A stretch of DNA of 14,543 bases from Candidatus Iainarchaeum sp. GTDB taxonomy: Archaea > Iainarchaeota > Iainarchaeia > Iainarchaeales > CSSED10-239. The notes beneath the pieces were generated by a model, which ran no database searches, had not been told where the DNA came from, and saw nothing but the letters and a program-made list of their open reading frames with translations. The position numbers and the translations under genes were made by a program. Each line of letters begins with the position of its first letter. The first letter of the stretch is position 1. Below are positions 1,392 to 11,777 of the stretch, one piece after another. The DNA is taken from contig PWLL01000014.1 of NCBI GenBank assembly GCA_003559395.1, positions 1-14,543 of the forward strand, written 5' to 3'.

Positions 1392-2549
1392 TTATGCTTT
1401 TTCTAAATTATATAGCTTTTTTATTTCTTCTATAGTAAGTGCTCTATCATATATTCTAAGTTCATCAACAACACCATTAATTGCTCTTTCAAATGTTGTT
1501 GTGTAACCCCATTTTCCAACAAATATATTTCTATTGCTAAAATTATATTTTATCTCTTTAGAAACTTCTTCATAATTTCTTAAGATACCATCTACATAAA
1601 ATTTTGTTTTTTGTCCGTCATAAGTTGCAACCAAATGATACCATATATTTTCACTTACTGTAACATCATCTGCAAAAATTTGTGAACGTGTATCATCTGT
1701 AAATGATAAATAAAAACCAAATTTGCCTATATTTTCTTGATGTCTTATTATCCATGAATGATAAACAGGCCCTCCGGCCCTAGCTTTACTTAGTATCATG
1801 TTTCCTGTAGAATGGCTGCCAGCACCTTTAATTTTTACCCACAAAGACAAACTAATATTATTTACGTCATAAATAGAGTTATCTCCTAAATCAATATAAG
1901 TATTGATGCCATCATATTTATATGCTTGTCCAACAACTCCATCAACCATTGTTGCGCCCTGAACCGTGCCATGATTTTGATGTTGTGAAGAATCCTTTAC
2001 ATCACCTTCAAACTTCCACCAACCAACTAAACCACACAAAAAATTATCAACTTTTGATAAATCATTTTGAATTACATTTACTCTTATATACGCATTATTT
2101 TCTGTAATAAGATTTACTCTAAAACTAGTTTCTGGAAAACAATCAAGTCTGAAAATTTCTGTTGAGTTTGAAGATAGATAAATAGGTTCTTCTAGATCAA
2201 ACGTTTTATTGTGTAAAGAATCAAAAGAAATATGATCTTTAGAAGGCATGATCTGATAACCAACAATGTTTGCATCTTCTGAAGGATGACTGTTGGCTAA
2301 AGTTACAAAGTTTCCAGAAACTCTTTGAGAAGTAACAAAGCCAGTTAGATTAGATGTAGAAAAGATATCTTCTGTTTCTTTTGTTCTCTCTGTTAAAAAA
2401 TCTGTTCCCCAGCCTAACAAAAGACCAACTAAAGCAACAACGATGACGATCAATAAGATACTTGCGATTAATGGAGAGATGGTTTTTTTGGAAATTTTTC
2501 TTAGTTTAAGTCTATCTTTAAACATTGGGTTTCTTTTTCTTAAGGACAT
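1392..2549 (-). CDS. Pilin-like protein: archaeal class III (prepilin) signal and hydrophobic N-terminus fused to a C-terminal LamG/concanavalin-A-like lectin domain
   Basis: The N-terminus ...KISKKT-ISPLIASILLIVIVVALVGLLLGWGTDF shares its pattern with the three pilins at 5883-7315. The C-terminal ~210 aa carry Laminin_G_3 hallmarks: GLVGWWKFEGDVKDSS.H.NHGTV.GA..V.GVVGQAYKYDG.NTYIDLG, ISLSLWVK, WYHLVATYDGQKTKFYVDG and GVVDELRIYDRALTIEEIKKLY. The start is uncertain: Met1 at 2549 or Met9 at 2525. Confidence 0.85.
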   Translation of the reverse strand: MSLRKRNPMFKDRLKLRKISKKTISPLIASILLIVIVVALVGLLLGWGTDFLTERTKETEDIFSTSNLTGFVTSQRVSGNFVTLANSHPSEDANIVGYQIMPSKDHISFDSLHNKTFDLEEPIYLSSNSTEIFRLDCFPETSFRVNLITENNAYIRVNVIQNDLSKVDNFLCGLVGWWKFEGDVKDSSQHQNHGTVQGATMVDGVVGQAYKYDGINTYIDLGDNSIYDVNNISLSLWVKIKGAGSHSTGNMILSKARAGGPVYHSWIIRHQENIGKFGFYLSFTDDTRSQIFADDVTVSENIWYHLVATYDGQKTKFYVDGILRNYEEVSKEIKYNFSNRNIFVGKWGYTTTFERAINGVVDELRIYDRALTIEEIKKLYNLEKA

Positions 2550-2562: not shown

Positions 2563-2707
2563 CTAAAACCTTTAAAAAACTAACGATTCTTTATTTTTGT
2601 GCACATATTTTGCACTGGCCACCAACCCTCTTACAAAACAAACCCCCTTTCTGAAGACCTTATTATTTTAGAAACAATTTTAAAAAAATAAAAAAAGGGT
2701 GATATAT

Positions 2708-2884
2708 ATGCAAATAATAGATAAAAAAAGCTTATGTGAATTTCAAACAAGCTTCTTAATAAAAATAAAACACACGATCCTTAAAAGAATAGAAACAGAA
2801 AAAGAAATAAACAAACCACATACAAGAATGCTATTTGACGTTTTGTCTGAGCTAGATAATAGAAGAATTGATTTTTCTTCTTAA
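2708..2884 (+). CDS. Small hypothetical protein (58 aa from the ATG), possibly a ribbon-helix-helix-like regulator
   Basis: The ORF track begins at GTG 2699, but ATG 2708 has a GGGTGA Shine-Dalgarno-like element (2697-2702) 5 nt upstream. It sits in the largest intergenic region, between divergent pilus-related genes. The pattern KKSLCEFQTS (strand) - FLIKIKHTILKRIE (helix) - KPHTRMLFDVLSEL (helix) loosely resembles CopG/Arc-type RHH proteins. Coding status is unproven. Confidence 0.3.
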   Translation: MQIIDKKSLCEFQTSFLIKIKHTILKRIETEKEINKPHTRMLFDVLSELDNRRIDFSS

Positions 2885-2929: not shown

Positions 2930-2953
2930 CAAAGAAAACAAAAACATTGTTTG

Positions 2954-3445
2954 ATGACAAAACAAAAAGGGTTTTTTAGTATAATAACATTAATGTATAT
3001 TTTAATAATAATAGTAACAACAGAAACAATCACACCACAACTACTAGAAATAGGAACAATGACACTTGCAGAAACACAAAAACAATCAAAAATAATAACA
3101 ATAGAACAGATTATAGAAAATAATCTTGATAACGATATTGAAAATACCTTTATTCTAAAACAAATGATTAATCTTAACTTGATTGCTTTTTTTGAAGAAA
3201 ACCCTCTTTTTGTTTATAACATAATAGATAAACAAAAACAAGAACTTACTTTTGAAAAACTAGACGAACTTTCTAACGTTATTGTCTATAAACCATCAAA
3301 ACATATGCTCATAAAAATATACACAATAACAAACGGTCGTGACAAAAACAAATTTGTTTCTGTAAACCTAAAAAACATAAACTATAAAACTTCTTTTCTT
3401 TTTCCAGAAGGATATACTAAAAGAGTGATTGTTTATAAGCTGTAA
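2954..3445 (+). CDS. Orphan prepilin/pseudopilin-like protein 1 (K-G-hydrophobic N-terminus)
   Basis: N-terminus is M(M)TKQKG-FFSIITLMYILIIIVTT: a short basic leader, then Lys-Gly, then a ~20-aa hydrophobic helix, which is class III signal-like. ATG is at 2954 (TTG at 2951). It is the first gene of a four-gene overlapping cassette. I recognise no family for the remainder. Confidence 0.6.
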   Translation: MTKQKGFFSIITLMYILIIIVTTETITPQLLEIGTMTLAETQKQSKIITIEQIIENNLDNDIENTFILKQMINLNLIAFFEENPLFVYNIIDKQKQELTFEKLDELSNVIVYKPSKHMLIKIYTITNGRDKNKFVSVNLKNINYKTSFLFPEGYTKRVIVYKL

Positions 3446-3665
3446 AGGTGTTTTATCTTTAGAGTTTTTATTCTTTCTTATGATCTTGTTAATGATTATT
3501 GGTTTGTTAATAAACCTTAACACAACAATAGTAAAAGGAATAGAAACACAAGAAATAGAAAAAGAATATATAAACAATATAAAAAACATAAAAAACGAAC
3601 ACTTAGAAAAAATAAACGGTGCTTTTTTTGAAAAAAATATCCAAAGGCCAAATTTTTATTTATGA
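3429..3665 (+). CDS. Orphan prepilin/pseudopilin-like protein 2 (78 aa)
   Basis: N-terminus is MFISCKG-VLSLEFLFFLMILLMIIGLL, with Gly followed by a hydrophobic segment and Glu at +5, as in bacterial type IV pilins and pseudopilins. The only possible start before the KG motif is TTG 3429, directly after an in-frame TGA. It overlaps the upstream gene by 17 nt. Confidence 0.5.
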   Translation: MFISCKGVLSLEFLFFLMILLMIIGLLINLNTTIVKGIETQEIEKEYINNIKNIKNEHLEKINGAFFEKNIQRPNFYL

Positions 3666-4020
3666 AATATTCATTATCTTACTGGTTGTGATTCTTATAA
3701 TATTTATACAACTACAAATAATCAACAACTATTTTTCAGAAATAAAAACAGAAACAAAAGAAACAAAGATTCTAGAAGAAATCTTGTTTGTTGAAACCCT
3801 GATCTCTGATTGTGAATTTCTTGCAAACCAAAAACAAAAAATTTGCTATAAAAATAATATTTCTTTTAATGAAGATATAGAATATAAAAAACACAACCTA
3901 ACAACAATAACAATCAACAACAAAGAATATTATAAATCTGGAGAAAAAAACCGTTGTTATAAAAGAGGAGTCATCTATAAAAGAGCTTTTGCTTTATTAG
4001 AGGTTTGTTATGAAAGATAA
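3619..4020 (+). CDS. Orphan prepilin/pseudopilin-like protein 3 (133 aa, four Cys)
   Basis: N-terminus is MLFLKKISKG-QIFIYEIFIILLVVILIIF, with an acidic residue at +6. The start is GTG 3619 (or TTG 3628) and overlaps the upstream gene. Cysteines are arranged C-x10-C ... C-x17-C. Confidence 0.55.
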   Translation: MLFLKKISKGQIFIYEIFIILLVVILIIFIQLQIINNYFSEIKTETKETKILEEILFVETLISDCEFLANQKQKICYKNNISFNEDIEYKKHNLTTITINNKEYYKSGEKNRCYKRGVIYKRAFALLEVCYER

Positions 4021-4363
4021 AGGTTTTTTTCTTATTGTTGATGTGATGATTGCATTAATAATGATTAGTTTGTTATTAAATCTAACATATGACTCCCACA
4101 CCTACAAAGAATATGAAAGAATAATAATTACTCAACAAATAAATGACCTATTGTTAACGTCTCAACAACAAAGCCTAACATTAAAAGAAATTACAGAAAA
4201 CGCAAAACTTCTTTTACCCCACAGAAGAATAAAAATAAAACATAATCAAAAAATAACTGAAATTAATAAAAATTTAAGATTTACAGAGAAAATCTCAAAT
4301 TCCATAAGATATATTAATAGTTCTAACAAAGAAATATATATAGAGGTAATTGTTTTTTATTAA
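4010..4363 (+). CDS. Orphan prepilin/pseudopilin-like protein 4 (117 aa)
   Basis: N-terminus MKDKG-FFLIVDVMIALIMISLLL strongly resembles the bacterial KGFTLIE-type prepilin N-terminus (Asp at +6). The ATG start overlaps the upstream gene by 11 nt. Confidence 0.6.
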   Translation: MKDKGFFLIVDVMIALIMISLLLNLTYDSHTYKEYERIIITQQINDLLLTSQQQSLTLKEITENAKLLLPHRRIKIKHNQKITEINKNLRFTEKISNSIRYINSSNKEIYIEVIVFY

Positions 4364-5388: not shown

Positions 5389-5886
5389 GTGAAAAAAATG
5401 ATTGTAAAGCTAGAAAATGATTTTTGTAAAATAGAAAATAATAATCTTAAAAGCCAGTTAACAAAAAAAGGAATTGGTTTTAAAAAAGAACTTGATTTCT
5501 ATATAGATCTTTATGAAACTTTTTACCTTTTTTGTAAAAACAAAATAACTGTTAAAAAAGATTCTAAAAACCTATCTAAAAAAGAAATATTAGAGATTTG
5601 TAAAAAAAACATAAAAGATTTTGAAAATAAATTCCTCGTCTATGAAGATTTGAAAAATCAAGGATATATTGTTAAAGATGGCACTAGTTTTGGTTTTGAT
5701 TTTAGAGTTTATAAGAACAAAAACGAACATACAGAGTTTGTAGTCGATGTAATCAAAAGTCAAAAAGATACTATAAACAAAATAATAAAATCAGAAAGAC
5801 TTGCAACAACTATAAACGCAAAATGCGTTTTAGCAATCGTTAGTTTAGAAAAAAAAATAATAAAAATAAAAATAGAAAAACTCTAA
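5389..5886 (+). CDS. endA: tRNA-splicing endonuclease, short catalytic-type subunit
   Basis: VYEDLKNQGYIVKDGTSFGFDFRVYKNKNEHTEFVV....RLATTINAKCVLAIV aligns with M. jannaschii EndA (VYKDLRTRGYIVKTGLKYGADFRLYE...HS.YLV...RVAHSVRKKLLIAIV). The Tyr/His/Lys catalytic residues are all present. The start is GTG 5389 or ATG 5398. Confidence 0.88.
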   Translation: MKKMIVKLENDFCKIENNNLKSQLTKKGIGFKKELDFYIDLYETFYLFCKNKITVKKDSKNLSKKEILEICKKNIKDFENKFLVYEDLKNQGYIVKDGTSFGFDFRVYKNKNEHTEFVVDVIKSQKDTINKIIKSERLATTINAKCVLAIVSLEKKIIKIKIEKL

Positions 5887-6338
5887 TTTTCTCTGCAAGT
5901 AACACTTCTTTGAACATTTGGACATAAACTAGGATTTATTTTTAATGTTGTTGGATTTGTAAAACTTTCAAGGTTTTCAATAGTAGCAGTTGTTGATACT
6001 CCCACACTTAAAGAATTAGTATCAAAATCAACTTCTGTTGTAAGAAAATTATCATCTCTATCTGTTATTACTGCATAGAATTTGTTTCTTTCTGGAAAAT
6101 CCAAATTACCTGTATTTGTTAAAATTACAAACATTTCATTTAATGATGGATAAAAACTACAAGAAGTAATTTTTATATCTGCACCCATACAACTAAAATC
6201 AATTGCATCATCTGCAGTATCTGTGCTACGTCTAACAAAATCAACACCCCAGTTAAGCACCAACGCAGTTATAGCAACTACAACTACGATTAACAAAATA
6301 GTGGCAATAACTGGGGATACTGATTTTTGTTTGTTCAT
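5883..6338 (-). CDS. Archaeal type IV pilin paralog C (class III signal peptide)
   Basis: N-terminus MNKQKS-VSPVIATILLIVVVVAITALVLNWG is of the archaeal pilin N-terminal domain type. There are four Cys: C-x9-C and a C-terminal C-P-x7-C. It starts 12 nt after pilin B, and its stop overlaps the endA stop on the other strand. Confidence 0.85.
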   Translation of the reverse strand: MNKQKSVSPVIATILLIVVVVAITALVLNWGVDFVRRSTDTADDAIDFSCMGADIKITSCSFYPSLNEMFVILTNTGNLDFPERNKFYAVITDRDDNFLTTEVDFDTNSLSVGVSTTATIENLESFTNPTTLKINPSLCPNVQRSVTCREN

Positions 6339-6350
6339 TTATTACACAAT

Positions 6351-6809
6351 TTAACTACATGTTTTTACAACATATCCATCTGATGGACAATCTTGTGCTT
6401 TTACTCTAACTTCGTACTCGTTTTCAGTAATATTCTCGTTTTCAATAGATATTGCTGCTGACTGACCAGGGTTTAACAACTCTAATGCTGAACCTCCGGA
6501 GTTAAGATCAGTTACTGAAATTAAATCGTTTCCAGAACTCAAGTCTGCATCAAATCCTGTAGAATGTACATATGATCCACTTCTATTTCTTAGGATCATT
6601 GATAAAACATTTCCATCTACTGAACAACTATCTATTGCTAGAGTTCCAATTGCTTCGTTACAAGCGCCACCAGCCATACCATCAGCGTCTGCTAATGCGT
6701 CTGTTGCAAAGTCTCTACCCCATGTCAAAACAACTGCGACAAGAATAACAGCCACAACAATTAATAAAATTGTTGCAATTAATGGTGAAACTGCTTTTTT
6801 TGAATTCAT
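6351..6809 (-). CDS. Archaeal type IV pilin paralog B (probable major pilin)
   Basis: N-terminus is MNSKKA-VSPLIATILLIVVAVILVAVVLTWG. The four Cys follow the same pattern (C-x11-C; C-P-x8-C). It has the only perfect GGAGG Shine-Dalgarno in the window, 7 nt upstream of its ATG. It is Gly/Ala/Ser/Asp-rich and visibly less AT-rich than its neighbours. Confidence 0.88.
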   Translation of the reverse strand: MNSKKAVSPLIATILLIVVAVILVAVVLTWGRDFATDALADADGMAGGACNEAIGTLAIDSCSVDGNVLSMILRNRSGSYVHSTGFDADLSSGNDLISVTDLNSGGSALELLNPGQSAAISIENENITENEYEVRVKAQDCPSDGYVVKTCS

Positions 6810-6816
6810 TATATTT

Positions 6817-6821
6817 CCTCC
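6817..6821 (-). promoter_or_regulatory. Shine-Dalgarno element (GGAGG) of pilin B
   Basis: The minus strand reads AAGGAGGAAATATA-ATG, with 7 nt between GGAGG and the start codon. Other genes here show only partial (GAGGT, GAGGA, GGGTGA) or no SD elements. Confidence 0.7.
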
Positions 6822-6841
6822 TTAATTTGTATTAAGATTTA

Positions 6842-7315
6842 TTAACGACAAGTTGCTGTCGTAAATTGATCTGGACAAGAATCTACAAAAATTCTTGTTC
6901 TAACAGGACTTTCAAGTCCTTCAAAGTCTTCTGGATCGTTTGGATCTTCAAAGTTTATTGATCTTATTTGCATGGCTCTGTTTGTAAATGCTGTTTCTAA
7001 TGCGGCTGTAGCTATATCTCCGTTTGCATCTGTTACTAGTATGTTTAATTTATCATTTATTTCAACTGTTGAATTATCCATAAGAACTAATGATAGACCA
7101 GTTGAAGGATCGTAACTACAACCAGTATCAATATTAATTCTTACATAATTACACTCACCCCATGCTTCTGTGGTTTCTGTAATTGACTCTGTTGTTTCTC
7201 TCGCACTTTGAGAAGACCAAGAATATAAAATACCTGCTAATGATAAAGCAACTGCAACTAACAAAATAGTTGCAATCAATGGCGAAACTGCCTTAGATTT
7301 TTTTTTTAATATCAT
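6842..7315 (-). CDS. Archaeal type IV pilin paralog A
   Basis: N-terminus is MILKKKSKA-VSPLIATILLVAVALSLAGILYSW. The four Cys follow the same pattern (C-x10-C; C-P-x8-C). It is preceded by a 2 x 23-bp tandem repeat in its promoter region. Confidence 0.87.
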   Translation of the reverse strand: MILKKKSKAVSPLIATILLVAVALSLAGILYSWSSQSARETTESITETTEAWGECNYVRINIDTGCSYDPSTGLSLVLMDNSTVEINDKLNILVTDANGDIATAALETAFTNRAMQIRSINFEDPNDPEDFEGLESPVRTRIFVDSCPDQFTTATCR

Positions 7316-7327
7316 AAATCTCTAACT

Positions 7328-7373
7328 TTTAATTTATTATTTATCTTATTTTTAATTTATTATTTATCTTATT
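7328..7373 (-). repeat. Perfect 2 x 23-bp tandem direct repeat in the pilin A promoter region
   Basis: tttaatttattatttatcttatt occurs at 7328-7350 and again at 7351-7373. On the coding (minus) strand this reads AATAAGATAAATAATAAATTAAA x2, ending 12 nt upstream of the pilin A ATG. Each unit contains TATA-box-like sequence. Confidence 0.9.
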
Positions 7374-7408
7374 TCTTATATATATGTATTACACAAATAT
7401 TTATAAAC

Positions 7409-7430
7409 GTTTGTTATTTATTAAACAAAC
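7409..7430 (-). terminator. 7-bp-stem hairpin just downstream of the FlaJ-like gene stop
   Basis: gtttgtt (7409-7415) and aacaaac (7424-7430) are perfectly complementary, with an 8-nt loop. The hairpin begins 6 nt after the TAA at 7437-7439 (minus strand) and is followed by U-rich sequence. The stem is weak and AU-rich. Confidence 0.3.
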
Positions 7431-7436
7431 AATTTT

Positions 7437-8252
7437 TTAAACAATAAACAATAATGACACCACCACATATACAGGAATAGAAACACACAACAAAATTATC
7501 GAATGTTTGATGCCCGCAGTCGCACTACCTTCTGAGATTTTACCAATTACGGGCCCTGCAAAACCTCCCTGAATAACTAAAAGATACAAAAAATATGTGT
7601 TAAAGTTAACTTCCTCCATAGAGGTGTCTCCGCCTGTAGCCCCTGCAAGTTCTGTTGTTGTTAACATTGGCAAAAACACAATTTGAATAATTAATATAAT
7701 AGCAATAAAAACAAAAAACATAAAATATGAAGAAAAAACAGAAGTAAATGTTTTTGATTTCCTTTCTTCTGTCATTTCATTTATTGTTTTTACATAACCA
7801 GAAACAGAAGAAAAAATCTTAATTAAATTTCCTCCGTATTTTGTACTTTCTGAAATTACTTCTGCAGATTTTGCAAACATAGGACTATCGATTTCTGAGA
7901 AAATGTTTACTAGTGCTTGGTCAAAAGGGATCCCTATTTTTACTTGTGCAGCTAATCGTTTTACTTCTGTATTTAAAGAACCATAATTGTTATCACACAA
8001 AATCTCCATAGAAGTAACTATATTCATTCCACCTCTTAAAAGGTCTTTTAGATCTTCTAAGAAAACAAACAGATTTTGTTCATAGGACTTAATTTTTGCA
8101 GTATATATTCCTGCAGCAATTCCAACACTTACTACAAAAGGAAAAATAGAAAAAACAAACAAATTAGTATTGAACAATAAAATTGCTGCAATTATTGAGC
8201 CAATTGCGCCCTTGATCGCAAAGCCCTTTATATATTTTAATCTTTTGTTCAT
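7437..8252 (-). CDS. FlaJ/PilC/TadC-like polytopic membrane protein with a single T2SS-F-type domain (platform, second half)
   Basis: N-terminal TM helices are followed by a cytoplasmic helical domain (FLEDLKDLLRGGMNIVTSMEIL...LNTEVKRLAAQVKIGIPFDQALVN....SPMFAKSAEVISESTKYGGNLIKIF) and then C-terminal TM helices. This is the T2SSF-domain architecture. Confidence 0.75.
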   Translation of the reverse strand: MNKRLKYIKGFAIKGAIGSIIAAILLFNTNLFVFSIFPFVVSVGIAAGIYTAKIKSYEQNLFVFLEDLKDLLRGGMNIVTSMEILCDNNYGSLNTEVKRLAAQVKIGIPFDQALVNIFSEIDSPMFAKSAEVISESTKYGGNLIKIFSSVSGYVKTINEMTEERKSKTFTSVFSSYFMFFVFIAIILIIQIVFLPMLTTTELAGATGGDTSMEEVNFNTYFLYLLVIQGGFAGPVIGKISEGSATAGIKHSIILLCVSIPVYVVVSLLFIV

Positions 8253-8264
8253 ATTTTATTTCCT

Positions 8265-9152
8265 CTACGAAAGCATTTGTAATAAAACTAAAAAAATTAT
8301 ATTTACTACAGGTATTAAAAAAAATATTCCTATTAACATTAAAGCAGACACACTAAGCCCGCCAATAGCAGTGCCTCCAATCATTCCTAACAACATTATG
8401 GTTGAAAACAAAAACAATGGACCAGCAATAACAACAGCAGAATAAATGTCTCCAAAAGTTTCTGCTTTTTTATTCATTTTATCAAGCATAAGGTTGTACA
8501 TAAACTGAGCATGTTCTGCTTTCTTTTTCATAAAATCAGAAATGGACCCACCTGCTTGTATATTTGACTTAAGTTCTCTTAAAAACTTTTTAAGTTCTAA
8601 AGAAGGTGTTTTTTCTGAAACAATATCTATGGCCTCTAGTAAAGAAATTCCTAAATTGTCTATATAGTGTGTAAGTTTATTAAGTTCCTTATTAACATAT
8701 GGCGTTTCTTTACTTATTGAAGCTGTATGAAACATAGCTTCTGGTGGTGCACCAGATTCAGCAATACTTGACATACTTAATATAGATAAAGAAAAATTAT
8801 TTTTTATTTGTTCTGTTTTTGTCATAACATCAATATATGGTTTAACCATTGCGTAAATAATCACACCTAAAAAAACAAAAATACCAATAATAAATAAAAT
8901 AAAAATATCTTCTAAAGAATTAGTTACAACTAAAAACAGACTTCCAAAAAACAACAACAAAATAGTTGCAAACACAGCAAAAAAAAGATATTTGGACATA
9001 TAATAATCAAGATCATCTAGATTATCTGATTGTTGCAATTTGAGTTCTATTTCTGGAATTTGAATTTTTTTAGTAATAGGCATAAATAACGTATACATCT
9101 GTTCTTCAAACTTATCTGGTTTCTTTTTTGGAATTGTCTTTTCTTTTTTCAT
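8265..9152 (-). CDS. FlaJ/PilC/TadB-like polytopic membrane protein with a single T2SS-F-type domain (platform, first half)
   Basis: TM helices are followed by LSILSMSSIAESGAPPEAMFHTAS....YVNKELNKLTHYIDNLGISLLEAIDIVSEKTPSLELKKFLRELKSNIQAGGSISDFM and then further TM helices, which is the typical FlaJ/TadB cytoplasmic domain pattern. It lies 12 nt upstream of the second half-gene. Confidence 0.78.
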   Translation of the reverse strand: MKKEKTIPKKKPDKFEEQMYTLFMPITKKIQIPEIELKLQQSDNLDDLDYYMSKYLFFAVFATILLLFFGSLFLVVTNSLEDIFILFIIGIFVFLGVIIYAMVKPYIDVMTKTEQIKNNFSLSILSMSSIAESGAPPEAMFHTASISKETPYVNKELNKLTHYIDNLGISLLEAIDIVSEKTPSLELKKFLRELKSNIQAGGSISDFMKKKAEHAQFMYNLMLDKMNKKAETFGDIYSAVVIAGPLFLFSTIMLLGMIGGTAIGGLSVSALMLIGIFFLIPVVNIIFLVLLQMLS

Positions 9153-9175
9153 ATTTACAGATATTTATTCGTCAT

Positions 9176-9228
9176 TTTATTATATATAATATAAGTAATG
9201 GTTTTTAATACTTTACTAATCTTAAAAA
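9176..9228 (-). promoter_or_regulatory. T5 tract after the DRG stop, plus a TATA-like element upstream of the first FlaJ-like gene
   Basis: On the minus strand TAG is followed directly by TTTTT (9224-9228). TTATATTATATATAATAAAAT lies roughly 25-45 nt upstream of the ATG at 9152. This is consistent with a separate, short-leader transcription unit for the pilus genes. Confidence 0.3.
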
Positions 9229-10335
9229 CTACATCAAAAACTCAACAATATCTTTATTTTTAAGAATATAATTTTTAGAAACTTTTTGACCATTATACTT
9301 AGAACTACCCCAAACTCTTGCAGATTTAAGATTCTTATAAATCGTTTTATGTATATCTTTTGAAGCATCCATAACAGTTGAATTGTTATCTAAAACTAAT
9401 GGTTCTTTTACATCTGCTTTTTTACCTGGTTTTTTTGTATAAACAACAATTTTATCTAGCATATAAAAGATTTCATCTGTTAGATCTTCTTTTTCTTCTA
9501 AATCATAGATTTTTATTTTTTTATAAATATTTGTTTTTTTTTTAATATTGTTAATAGGCAAAGATACACAAATCGCTTTCATATACTTTGCTCTTGGATT
9601 TATTAATAACAACAAATCGTCCATATCTATTTTTTGATTTAAAATAAAGGTATGTGATCTATATCCTGAATCTCTTAAAAGATTTATTGCTTTTTGTTTA
9701 TCTATTAAAAGATTATGTTGATTAACAAAAGAGACGCCAACAAAATCACTTTTTACAATCTTTACATTTGGTCTTTTTTTAGTTAAATAAACATCTTGTT
9801 TTTCTAAGTTTTCTAACAACAAATCTATTTGATAAAATTGACAATCACTAATAACCAACACTAAAGCATCTGCAACTCTTATCATCGAATAAACTTGAGA
9901 CATTAGTTCTCCACCATCTAGAAAAGAAGGGAGTTCTACTAGCTGAATGTGTGCACCTCCATAATTTAAGGTGCCAATCTCTGGTTTAGTGGTTGTAAAA
10001 GGGTACGCTGCAATTTCTGGTTTTGCATTTGTTATTTCTGCTAAAAAAGTGCTTTTTCCAGAATTTGGCAAACCTACCACCAAAACCTGACCAGCTCCTT
10101 CTTTTTTAATATTTATTGTATGTCCTGTTTTTTTTGCAGCTTGTGTTTGTTTTTCCATCTTTGATTTTAAACTTGCAATCTTTCTACTAAGATCTTTTCT
10201 TAGATTTTCTGCACCTTTATGAGAGGGGGCTGTAGAAAGCATTTCTTGCAAGCCAATTAACTTTTCATCATTAGTTTGTGCTTCTTCATACTTTTTTTTT
10301 GCATTTGCAAATTCATAATTTACGTTTGCGGGCAT
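9229..10335 (-). CDS. DRG/Obg-like GTP-binding protein with C-terminal TGS domain; G3 and G4 motifs are non-canonical
   Basis: G1 is VGLPNSGKSTFL and G2 is YPFTTTKPEIG. An S5D2L-like insert (LTKKRPNVKIVK...) and a TGS-like tail (VYTKKPGKKAD..EPLVL...STV.D....IHK.....LK.ARVWG.S....GQKV....IL...DIVE) are both present. G3 reads VELPS instead of DxPG, and no NKxD occurs at the aligned G4 position. Confidence 0.85.
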   Translation of the reverse strand: MPANVNYEFANAKKKYEEAQTNDEKLIGLQEMLSTAPSHKGAENLRKDLSRKIASLKSKMEKQTQAAKKTGHTINIKKEGAGQVLVVGLPNSGKSTFLAEITNAKPEIAAYPFTTTKPEIGTLNYGGAHIQLVELPSFLDGGELMSQVYSMIRVADALVLVISDCQFYQIDLLLENLEKQDVYLTKKRPNVKIVKSDFVGVSFVNQHNLLIDKQKAINLLRDSGYRSHTFILNQKIDMDDLLLLINPRAKYMKAICVSLPINNIKKKTNIYKKIKIYDLEEKEDLTDEIFYMLDKIVVYTKKPGKKADVKEPLVLDNNSTVMDASKDIHKTIYKNLKSARVWGSSKYNGQKVSKNYILKNKDIVEFLM

Positions 10336-10348
10336 GGTTAGTTTTACC

Positions 10349-10960
10349 TCATTTAAGAATTTTTAAAATTAACAATTCTTCAAAAAACAATTTTTTTTTA
10401 TTTATTATTTTTACAGAAAATTCTTTTTTTATATTTTTGATAATTCTTTCAGGATTATTTAAAGAAGAAATCAAAAGATAACAAACCCCTTCTTTTTCTA
10501 AAAACTTATTAAGATTTTTAAGAAACTGATCTATTATTTCCGAACCTTCTTTTCCTCCATCTGTTGCTATTGCTTCTTTATCTTTTAGATTTATTTTTTC
10601 TGAAGGAACATATGGGGGATTAAAAACAATCACATCATATTTTTTATTTATGTTTGTAAAAAGATTTGATTTTATAACGTTTATGTTTAAGTTTTCTTTA
10701 TCTACTAAATTTTTAAAATAATCAATCACATCTTCGTTAATATCACAACAATCAACCATGTTAATTTTCTTAGAAAGATAAAGAGAGATTATGCCTGATC
10801 CAAAACCAAGCTCAAGGGTGTTTTTATAATTATTTAAAGCTTCTTTTTTTAAAGCATCTAACAAAAGAAAAGTATCATCTGAAGGAAGATAACAGGTTTT
10901 TGGTAGATTTAAAGAATAATCGTCATATCTGTATATTGTTTTTAAAGTTGTTTCTTGCAT
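10349..10960 (-). CDS. HemK/Mtq2-type SAM-dependent N5-glutamine methyltransferase
   Basis: CYLPSDDTFLLLDAL, SAM motif I LELGFGSGIISL, CCDIN and the catalytic motif IVFNPPYVPS are present. The ~200-aa length is typical of archaeal Mtq2 homologs. Confidence 0.85.
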   Translation of the reverse strand: MQETTLKTIYRYDDYSLNLPKTCYLPSDDTFLLLDALKKEALNNYKNTLELGFGSGIISLYLSKKINMVDCCDINEDVIDYFKNLVDKENLNINVIKSNLFTNINKKYDVIVFNPPYVPSEKINLKDKEAIATDGGKEGSEIIDQFLKNLNKFLEKEGVCYLLISSLNNPERIIKNIKKEFSVKIINKKKLFFEELLILKILK

Positions 10961-11048
10961 AAATATATTATTACTATAAATCTTCTTTTAAACCTATTTT
11001 CTAGAAAATAACAATCTTTTTATTTGCTTTCAACCTACATTATATTTT

Positions 11049-11777
11049 ATGAGTAAAAAATATATAGACGTACACACACACTATGCCTTCAAAGACTATG
11101 AAGATCTTAAAAAAATTTATGAAACAGAAAATATAGTTGGCTTGTGTTCAAGCACAGACCTTCATTCATATAAAGATTTAGAAAAACTAAAAGAAAAAAA
11201 CATAAACAACCTTTTCTTTTCCCATGGCCTTTATCCAGACGTACTTAATAACAAAACCCTTGAAGAATGTTATAAAGAGCTAGACCAAATAGATTTTTCA
11301 AAAGGTATAGCTATAGGAGAAATAGGTCTTGATAACAAAATAACAAAAGACAAACAAAAAAGAGAAGAACAGAAAAAACTCTTTGAAAAACAATTAGAAA
11401 TTGCAGAGTCTAAAAAACTACCAGTTGTTGTTCATAGCAGATATGCAAGCAAACACGTTCTAGAAACCCTCACAAACTTCAAAATACCAACTATTCTTCA
11501 TTGGTTCTCAGGAACAGACAAAGAAATTGATGAAGCTTTTTCTAGAGGTTATTTTCTTTCTCTTAACTATGATAGAACAAAAGTAAACATAACAGAAGAA
11601 AATATAAACCAAATATTTATAGAAACAGATTATCCTATACCTTACAACAACAAAACTAACATTCTTAATATTAAAGAAGCCTACAAAATAGTAGCATATA
11701 AAAACAGTTTGAATATTAATTATTTACAAGAGAAAATACAAGAAAACTTTTATAGACTATTTAAGATAAAAATATGA
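11049..11777 (+). CDS. tatD: TatD-family metal-dependent hydrolase/DNase
   Basis: IDVHTHY, AIGEIGLD, the QKKLFEKQLEIA helix, PVVVHSR, ILHWFSG and FIETDYP together form the TatD amidohydrolase metal-ligand series. Confidence 0.88.
   Translation: MSKKYIDVHTHYAFKDYEDLKKIYETENIVGLCSSTDLHSYKDLEKLKEKNINNLFFSHGLYPDVLNNKTLEECYKELDQIDFSKGIAIGEIGLDNKITKDKQKREEQKKLFEKQLEIAESKKLPVVVHSRYASKHVLETLTNFKIPTILHWFSGTDKEIDEAFSRGYFLSLNYDRTKVNITEENINQIFIETDYPIPYNNKTNILNIKEAYKIVAYKNSLNINYLQEKIQENFYRLFKIKI

Follow-up and report, generated by a model that had tools for sequence, protein, structure and literature searches.

This study examined one gene in the 14,543-bp contig PWLL01000014.1, assigned to Candidatus Iainarchaeum sp.; the complete NCBI contig, with a G+C content of approximately 28%, is referred to as the window. 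The gene lies on the minus strand, has an ATG start in the list of open reading frames (ORFs), and encodes a protein of 385 amino acids (aa), hereafter the pilin-LamG protein (Table 1). The original prediction, made from the sequence alone, had proposed that a pilin is fused to a LamG, or concanavalin A (ConA)-like, jelly-roll and that the product is a candidate filament-displayed adhesin. Profile matches, a structural model, fold matches, and the presence of a pilus locus 3.3 kb away all supported this proposal.

The C-terminal part of the protein was matched by Pfam Laminin_G_3 (PF13385), and the alignment covered the full profile (positions 1-151/151) with E=3.5e-23 and 82.8 bits against a cutoff of 27.6. 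All four motif strings by which a Laminin_G_3-type domain had been recognized were found, at residues 173-182, 210-222, 303-321, and 361-380. The PDB sequence matches of this head were 4qvs, a LamG domain of an S-layer-domain protein (3.9e-9), and 5hon, domain 4 of the arabinanase AbnA (1.5e-4). A Foldseek search with the head returned the lectin-like HcN domains of clostridial neurotoxins, AbnA domain 4 (target TM-score, TMt, 0.80), and a sialidase entry, with E values of approximately 1e-12. To our knowledge, PF13385 has no universal binding-site signature.

The stretch between the N-terminal helix and the head had been described as a spacer of approximately 125 aa, rich in Ser, Asn, and Thr and containing two Cys 35 residues apart. 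The composition was borne out (30% S/T/N in residues 48-172 versus 22% in the whole protein), as were the two residues, Cys137 and Cys172. The stretch is not a spacer, however; the family alignment, the structural model, and the fold matches revealed a conserved, folded β-sandwich with a family Cys pair. The AlphaFold2 (AF2) model, built on a 24-sequence alignment, had a mean predicted local distance difference test (pLDDT) score of 83.8 and a predicted TM-score (pTM) of 0.74, and comprised a 33-residue helix (26-58), a seven-strand β-domain (72-160, mostly with pLDDT >90), and a jelly-roll (174-384). When folded alone, the N-module had a pLDDT of 84.5. In Foldseek, its top PDB match was the type IV pilus subunit of Pyrobaculum calidifontis (8fk7, E=2.9e-6, probability 1.0), and next came the Saccharolobus/Sulfolobus pilins 6w8x, 8q30, 6nav, and 8tib; the TM-scores to these archaeal pilins were modest (0.34-0.46), as is expected for lollipop-shaped proteins with variable helix angles.

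The N-module was also compared with the three small pilins encoded in the window. Against these pilins and their relatives, hhalign reported a probability of 99.6% (E=1.7e-23) over 108 columns, and BLASTP aligned the pilin-LamG protein with pilin 2 over 147 residues at 30.6% identity (E=4e-12). In an alignment anchored on SP[LV]IA, the pilin-LamG protein shared 19 of 31 residues with pilins 1 and 2, and 13 with pilin 3. The originally noted likeness to the neighboring pilins is therefore real, but it is not limited to the first 47 aa or so, because the BLASTP alignment reaches far beyond them. On the basis of the fold matches, hhalign, and BLASTP, residues 1-172 are a complete archaeal type IV pilin and a paralog of the three neighboring pilins. 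The LamG domain begins directly after Cys172, with essentially no linker.

The N-terminus matched NCBIfam TIGR02537 (archaellin/type IV pilin N-terminal domain) over residues 24-47 with 21.3 bits against a cutoff of 20. Its class III motif, KK-T|ISPLIASILLIVIVVALVGLLLGW, is canonical apart from the Thr at position -1; it has the archaeal form KKT|ISPLIA without a Glu at position 5, and the bacterial motif of IPR012902 (G|F/M-T-L-x-E) is absent. The signal is of the class III type and not of the Tat type. The leader, which contains 10 K/R among its 23 residues, had been regarded as unusually long and basic compared with those of the other pilins. Whether it is long turns on which start codon is used: translation from M1 gives a leader of 23 aa and translation from M9 one of 15 aa, the closest homolog (P0001) starts at the equivalent of M9, and the called leaders across the family range from 2 to 45 residues. 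The mature protein is identical with either start. A scan of the positions upstream of the first ATG found a TATA-like box and no Shine-Dalgarno sequence; this arrangement is compatible with a leaderless mRNA starting at M1 if the box is a functional promoter element. The protein carries five N-glycosylation sequons. No match was obtained with PADLOC, and the sole Rfam match at E<=0.1 was a chance miRNA match inside the coding region.

Table 1. Features of the pilin-LamG gene, of its surroundings in the window, and of a retroelement-like cassette on the related contig L005 (positions refer to the window unless L005 is named).
Feature	Position	Strand	Evidence or remark
Whole gene, bimodular pilin-LamG protein, 385 aa	1392..2549	-	ORF list; Pfam and NCBIfam matches; AF2 model
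Stop codon of the pilin-LamG gene	1392-1394	-	
LamG/ConA-like jelly-roll head, residues 173-385	1395..2033	-	Laminin_G_3; PDB sequence matches; Foldseek
Pfam Laminin_G_3 match, residues 213-377	1419-1913	-	
Pilin globular β-sandwich, residues 59-172, seven strands	2034..2375	-	pLDDT; conserved columns; Cys pair; Foldseek; hhalign
Conserved Cys172	2034-2036	-	
Conserved Cys137	2139-2141	-	
Pilin α1 helix, residues 24-58: hydrophobic assembly segment 24-47 (ISPLIASILLIVIVVALVGLLLGW) and amphipathic continuation	2376..2480	-	TIGR02537; AF2; pilin alignment
Basic leader peptide, residues 1-23, ending in KKT before the predicted class III cleavage site T23|I24	2481..2549	-	Composition; family alignment of cleavage motifs
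Alternative start M9	2523-2525	-	Leader would be 15 aa
TATA-like box TTTTAAA, centered ~25 nt 5' of the first ATG	2571..2577	-	Position scan; alignment with L007
Four overlapping small ORFs (164, 78, 133, 117 aa), divergent from the pilin-LamG gene	2951..4363	+	Weak ComGD/ComGE matches; conservation in L007
Three small type IV pilin genes (151, 152, 157 aa)	5883..7315	-	TIGR02537; alignment; hhalign; BLASTP
Two T2SSF genes, split TadB/TadC-like platform protein, directly upstream of the three pilins	7437..9152	-	Pfam T2SSF 1.1e-15 and 3.5e-10
Variable repeat (VR), 90 nt, 3' end of the 861-aa gene	L005 8045-8134		
bAvd gene	L005 8859-9188		
Template repeat (TR), just after bAvd	L005 9260-9349		80% identical to VR

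The distribution of the module was then surveyed by searching residues 9-173 against 1.84 billion cluster representatives, and 184 proteins were obtained at E<=1e-3, 77 of them at E<=1e-10. A word-indexed profile search with the same module yielded 18 proteins, mostly small pilins matching the helix, and the exhaustive search of the representatives was more informative. The module was N-terminal in all but two of the 150 matches listed, in proteins of 102-1,271 aa; the members have canonical [KR][SAG]|[ILV]SP motifs, and the -2 residue of the cleavage motif is K or R in 132 of them. Beyond the helix, the family alignment exhibited the motifs WG..F, L.GF, I.GY.I, and C.PE..F...L.T..N.YI, as well as a second Cys, which follows the first by 29-35 residues in 86 of the 88 members that could be scored. 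This conservation suggests that Cys137 and Cys172 likely form a disulfide. Members carry public names such as "LamG domain-containing protein", "flagellin-like protein", or "hypothetical protein", and organism names among them also include "Ca. ainarchaeum sp."

To identify the heads, 99 full-length family members were scanned against Pfam. Laminin_G_3 was the head in 24 of these, followed by GLUG (15), RCC1 propellers (9), Lcl_C (8), DUF285, PKD, and DUF5122 (5 each), CHB_HEX_C (3), Kelch and Gly_rich_2 (2 each), and others. The pilin-LamG gene itself is an ordinary member, and the interest lies in how the family behaves. Exact-sequence look-ups of the pilin-LamG protein and of P0001 returned no recorded gene. 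Compared with P0001, the helix of the pilin-LamG protein is 85% identical and the β-domain 77%, whereas the LamG domain is 30% identical, no nearer than in distant members; the identity is kept through CGLVGWWKF and collapses after it. This drop from 77-85% in the pilin module to 30% in the head indicates that the head was replaced, or diverged to an extreme degree, at the module junction.

Related contigs provided further cases. On L004, a 105-kb contig of a relative, four tandem genes with the same pilin module occupy positions 6285-11101; three have divergent LamG_3 heads, and the fourth encodes a 479/482-aa protein that is without a Pfam match. L001 (9644-11471), from a metagenome-assembled genome (MAG) of Woesearchaeota, encodes a class III signal (MKRG|ISGVIV), an acidic Cys-rich linker, and a LamG domain, followed by another pilin-like gene; this pilin-LamG combination is of independent origin.

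A further form of head diversification was found near the family member P0034. On the contig L005, the gene at 5578-8163 encodes an 861-aa protein that starts with the same pilin module and continues with PKD-like repeats and a C-terminal domain of the FGE-sulfatase/C-type-lectin type. Its 3' end contains a VR, and a bAvd gene and a TR lie downstream (Table 1). The two repeats were compared over 110 nt, a window that includes approximately 12 non-homologous positions on each flank; 18 of the 29 mismatches fell at template adenines, which make up 32% of the template. Of the reverse transcriptase, only an N-terminal remnant (…YEPKERIINAPCFRDVVVQ) was present in L005, on the opposite strand and abutting the TR. 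The VR/TR/bAvd cassette thus bears the apparent hallmark of a diversity-generating retroelement (DGR) and may be called DGR-like; its present activity is uncertain because only this remnant was found. DGR targets are ligand-binding proteins, which supports a recognition role of the family heads. The pilin-LamG gene of the window has no DGR of its own. The cassette (L005 5578-9349) was also noted under L006. Further along L005 (10001-11689) lie P0034, with 226 aa comprising the pilin module and a short tail, and a neighboring gene for a 261-aa protein with PKD and Lcl_C; a 300-nt segment (85% identity) and repeats of 255 nt in these genes recur in the DGR target gene, of which the two may be a split or decayed paralog.

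The window also contains a pilus locus, composed of two T2SSF genes and the three small pilin genes, all within 5 kb, which lies 3.3-6.6 kb from the pilin-LamG gene. The three small pilins are candidate major or minor filament subunits. Two T2SSF genes upstream of pilin genes were also found in L007, a contig of a relative that is syntenic with the entire window, and such a split-platform layout has been described for archaeal "system 1/4A" loci, including those of DPANN (bioRxiv 10.64898/2026.04.22.720090). A DRG-type GTPase gene directly precedes the T2SSF genes, a position kept in L007 (window 7437-10335; L007 10001-12900).

In L007, the genes are ordered as CDC48, M50, TatD, methyltransferase, DRG GTPase, two T2SSF genes, four pilins, tRNA endonuclease, DUF357, diphthine synthase, four small ORFs, and orc1. 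The pilin-LamG gene is absent there, and a conserved intergenic block, including a TTTTTAAA box, joins orc1 directly; the TTTTAAA box is likewise kept upstream of orc1. The pilin-LamG gene is thus an accessory element consisting of a single gene. L004 and L007 belong to the same assembly, which therefore has the tandem array and lacks the pilin-LamG gene at L007. When the flanks of the gene were searched for insertion scars in the form of direct or inverted repeats, the only matches were AT-rich and of low complexity. A 28-nt match (82%) between the 5' coding end of orc1 (1213-1240, NTLFKD) and the pilin-LamG gene (2514-2541, NPMFKD), located at the boundary of the gene that L007 lacks, was considered as a duplication scar and judged to be chance, probably so because P0001 shares the MF.D start without that context.

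Between the pilin-LamG gene and the pilus locus lie four overlapping small ORFs, which were recovered one-to-one and in the same order in L007 (16739-18202) at 27-40% identity. Their N-termini (QKG|FFSII, CKG|VLSLEF, SKG|QIFIYE, and DKG|FFLIVD) resemble class III signals of the form G|xxxx(E/D), which are bacterial or Epd-like and unlike the [KR][SAT]|xSP of the other pilins; the acidic residue is missing from the signal of the largest of the four. On these grounds, the four ORFs may constitute a minor-pilin (HIJK-like) set, and any partnership with the LamG-pilin is speculative. An additional small ORF of 61 aa (IDxKxLCxFQTS…ILKR…ELDxRxxDF; window 2699-2884, plus strand; L007 18298-18585, minus strand; 50% identical) sits between the pilin genes and a GC-rich block and had no family match. 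This block (window 2612-2669; L007 ~18495-18560; AATAAGGTCTT…GGGGGT…GTA.G.GGG.TG.TG.CC.GTG) is conserved despite the 28% GC of the genome, lies immediately upstream of orc1/cdc6 in L007, and matched nothing in Rfam; an origin-recognition-box-type element and a small RNA are both conceivable.

The DRG GTPase of the window was 57% identical to that of "Candidatus ainarchaeum sp.", approximately 42-45% identical to those of "Candidatus Diapherotrites" MAGs, and 62-64% identical to those of further relatives. By this marker, the host lineage is an Iainarchaeota-related member of DPANN. The organism had been called an episymbiotic archaeon in the original prediction. For these Iainarchaeota/Diapherotrites-like DPANN this is an assumption, because an independent, free-living lifestyle has been proposed for Ca. 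Iainarchaeum (PMC6349945).

The pilin-LamG protein was compared with known systems. In bacteria, modular pilins include 264 architectures, PF13385 is among their commonest heads, and GLUG- and M26-type heads occur as well (PMC8179133). A close parallel is Streptococcus sanguinis PilC/PilB, whose pilin module bears a ConA-like/LamG-type lectin module C-terminally, with a short connection between the two (PMC8179133, PMC9934059); PilC binds glycans and has been modeled at the pilus tip (PMC9934059). The bacterial proteins differ in having the IPR012902 motif (G|FTLIE) and an α/β pilin fold, whereas in the pilin-LamG protein the motif is the archaeal [KR][SAG(T)]|[ILV]SP and the pilin domain is an Ig-like β-sandwich, and no sequence relationship exists outside the LamG superfamily. 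The architecture nevertheless corresponds to a modular pilin as described by Raynaud et al. 2021, with a pilin module (1-172), a Laminin_G_3 head (173-385), and the same carrier bearing many heads. The protein would work like a modular pilin but falls outside the bacterial family as defined by those authors, whose survey contains zero occurrences of the word "archaea" (PMC8179133).

Among archaeal proteins, the known type IV pilins (P. calidifontis 8fk7; Saccharolobus/Sulfolobus 6w8x, 6nav, and 8tib; Aap 8q30) share the class III signal, the long helix, and the Ig-like β-sandwich; they are single-module proteins of 130-140 residues, to which the pilin-LamG protein adds a 213-residue head. Haloarcula hispanica TafC (PMC11821415; NCBIfam NF052521), likewise an archaeal filament protein and comparable in size (37.8 kDa), has been proposed as the tip subunit of Tat-fimbriae. 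A β-sandwich forms its N-terminal part, and its C-terminal laminin-G-like domain has been suggested to face outward at the tip and act as an adhesin. TafC is, however, a Tat substrate assembled by donor-strand exchange, without a class III signal or an α1 helix. Membership in NF052521 was rejected, since the pilin-LamG protein scored 45.5 bits against a cutoff of 410, the LamG half alone gave 43 bits, and the β-domain alone gave no match. TafC thus parallels the pilin-LamG protein in function but is not related to it, and its filament is of an unrelated type. In the Sulfolobales bindosome, sugar-binding proteins are likewise mounted at the archaeal surface by a class III signal, although they have no pilin globular domain and their cargo is a substrate-binding protein of an ABC transporter rather than a LamG domain. 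The DGR-diversified tip adhesins of the Bacteroides type V pilus (bioRxiv 10.1101/2024.11.15.621889) have a parallel in the L005 5578-8163 member, which joins a pilus-subunit module to a VR-bearing C-type-lectin/FGE-sulfatase domain next to bAvd and a TR; they differ in filament type (V versus IV) and domain of life, and L005 retains only a reverse transcriptase remnant.

Considered together with these comparisons, the pilin-LamG protein is best read, by analogy, as the archaeal equivalent of the modular pilins of bacteria, S. sanguinis PilC among them. We consider it fairly probable that it is a bimodular archaeal type IV pilin with a LamG head that serves as a low-abundance adhesin subunit on type IV pili from the adjacent locus. 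The basic leader would be removed by a class III signal peptidase, presumably encoded elsewhere in the genome, and the α1 helix and β-sandwich would dock into the pilus built by the neighboring split-platform (T2SSF x2) machinery. The protein would be a low-abundance subunit of this pilus, most likely placed at the tip, because a 213-residue head without a linker would clash inside the filament sheath. The ligand bound by the exposed head may be a glycan or a protein, presented by a surface, by a host cell, or by another cell of the same species. At the level of the family, the pilin module would act as a constant carrier on which heads are exchanged or diversified (LamG variants, GLUG, RCC1, Lcl_C, PKD, and a DGR-targeted C-type lectin), and each genome would thereby gain a variable repertoire of pilus-borne binding specificities.

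Several observations weigh against this interpretation. Pfam Pilin_N (PF07790) did not match the protein and matched only 6 of the 99 family members scanned. The pilin-LamG gene lies outside the pilin operon, with housekeeping genes on the other strand in between; neither an assembly ATPase nor a prepilin peptidase was found on the 14.5-kb contig, and other family members are not adjacent to pilus machinery. The Thr at -1 is atypical, the assignment to the tip draws on analogy with bacterial modular pilins, and cleavage, filament incorporation, and ligand binding are each inferred.

The Thr and the gene position also bear on an alternative in which the signal is not cleaved, the helix stays as a type II membrane anchor, and the β-domain and LamG domain form a lectin tethered to the cell surface. 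We regard this as unlikely. In its favor, Thr at -1 is rare: this position is overwhelmingly S (84), A (42), or G (13) across the family, and T occurs in only 2 of approximately 145 other members. A long and very basic leader would also suit a positive-inside anchor, and the gene lies outside the pilin operon. The rest of the motif (KK-T|ISPLIAS) is canonical, however, and common to 150 family members and the adjacent pilins; moreover, P0001 also has Thr at -1, which argues that the residue is conserved and not a lesion. The retention of a complete pilin β-sandwich and its Cys pair, which a simple anchor has no reason to keep, further favors a pilin. In an arrangement like that of the bindosome, the class III signal would instead place the protein in a surface array or a short pseudopilus close to the cell, where substrates such as polysaccharides are captured for uptake. 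Class III signals are known from archaeal binding proteins, and a recent survey found such proteins to be widespread (bioRxiv 10.64898/2026.04.22.720090); the nearest solved LamG relatives include a carbohydrate-binding domain of an arabinanase (5hon). Those proteins, however, are substrate-binding proteins without a pilin globular domain, whereas the pilin-LamG protein has the full pilin module; a Pfam scan of it found no ABC-transporter substrate-binding domain, and the ORFs of the window included no ABC transporter genes near it. Adhesins, unlike nutrient receptors, typically have heads such as GLUG, RCC1, Kelch, and DGR-diversified lectins, and we consider the uptake reading improbable.

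It is also conceivable, though very unlikely in our judgment, that the LamG head binds glycans of the cell's own S-layer or pili and thereby mediates aggregation among conspecifics or pilus bundling instead of host attachment. Ups pili mediate aggregation among conspecifics in Sulfolobales, and the N-terminus of the pilin-LamG protein resembles UpsA (E=7e-5), but the likeness does not extend beyond the signal and helix. The protein has five sequons, and glycosylation is heavy on archaeal surfaces. Iainarchaeota-like DPANN may, in addition, be free-living (PMC6349945). The turnover of heads, the presence/absence polymorphism, and the DGR-targeted member fit the recognition of variable foreign ligands better than that of a conserved self-glycan.

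If the adhesin interpretation is extended to the family, a cassette system can be outlined for Iainarchaeota-related DPANN, which we put forward tentatively and hold to be possible rather than probable. In this scheme, a constant, disulfide-clamped carrier would present interchangeable tip heads through recombination at the CG-LVGWWKF junction, tandem amplification, gain and loss between close relatives, and DGR hypermutation in some members, and the repertoire, possibly primed by the adjacent four-gene G|xxxxE set, would set the attachment to surfaces or hosts. Adhesin-like accessory proteins appear in surveys of archaeal type IV filaments, which do not describe a carrier-plus-head family (PMC4858521; bioRxiv 10.64898/2026.04.22.720090); neither such a family nor a DGR-targeted archaeal pilin was described in the literature searched, and pilins are not mentioned by Handa 2016. 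The concept of the modular pilin is already known from bacteria, and what is new is its archaeal counterpart.

Pili that link ultrasmall DPANN or candidate phyla radiation (CPR) cells to larger cells have been imaged (PMC7906910), and no adhesin on the archaeal side of DPANN pili was identified in the literature searched. If true, the cassette system would give DPANN a first molecular candidate for host recognition through pili, and with its L005 member an archaeal type IV pilin would for the first time be shown to be targeted by a DGR. The findings define a recognizable archaeal carrier module with many different heads and signs of rapid turnover, a combination of pilin and head that current public annotation misses. 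The family provides testable candidates for host or surface specificity in an uncultivated lineage, and its proteins are good candidates for how such DPANN cells may grip surfaces or hosts.

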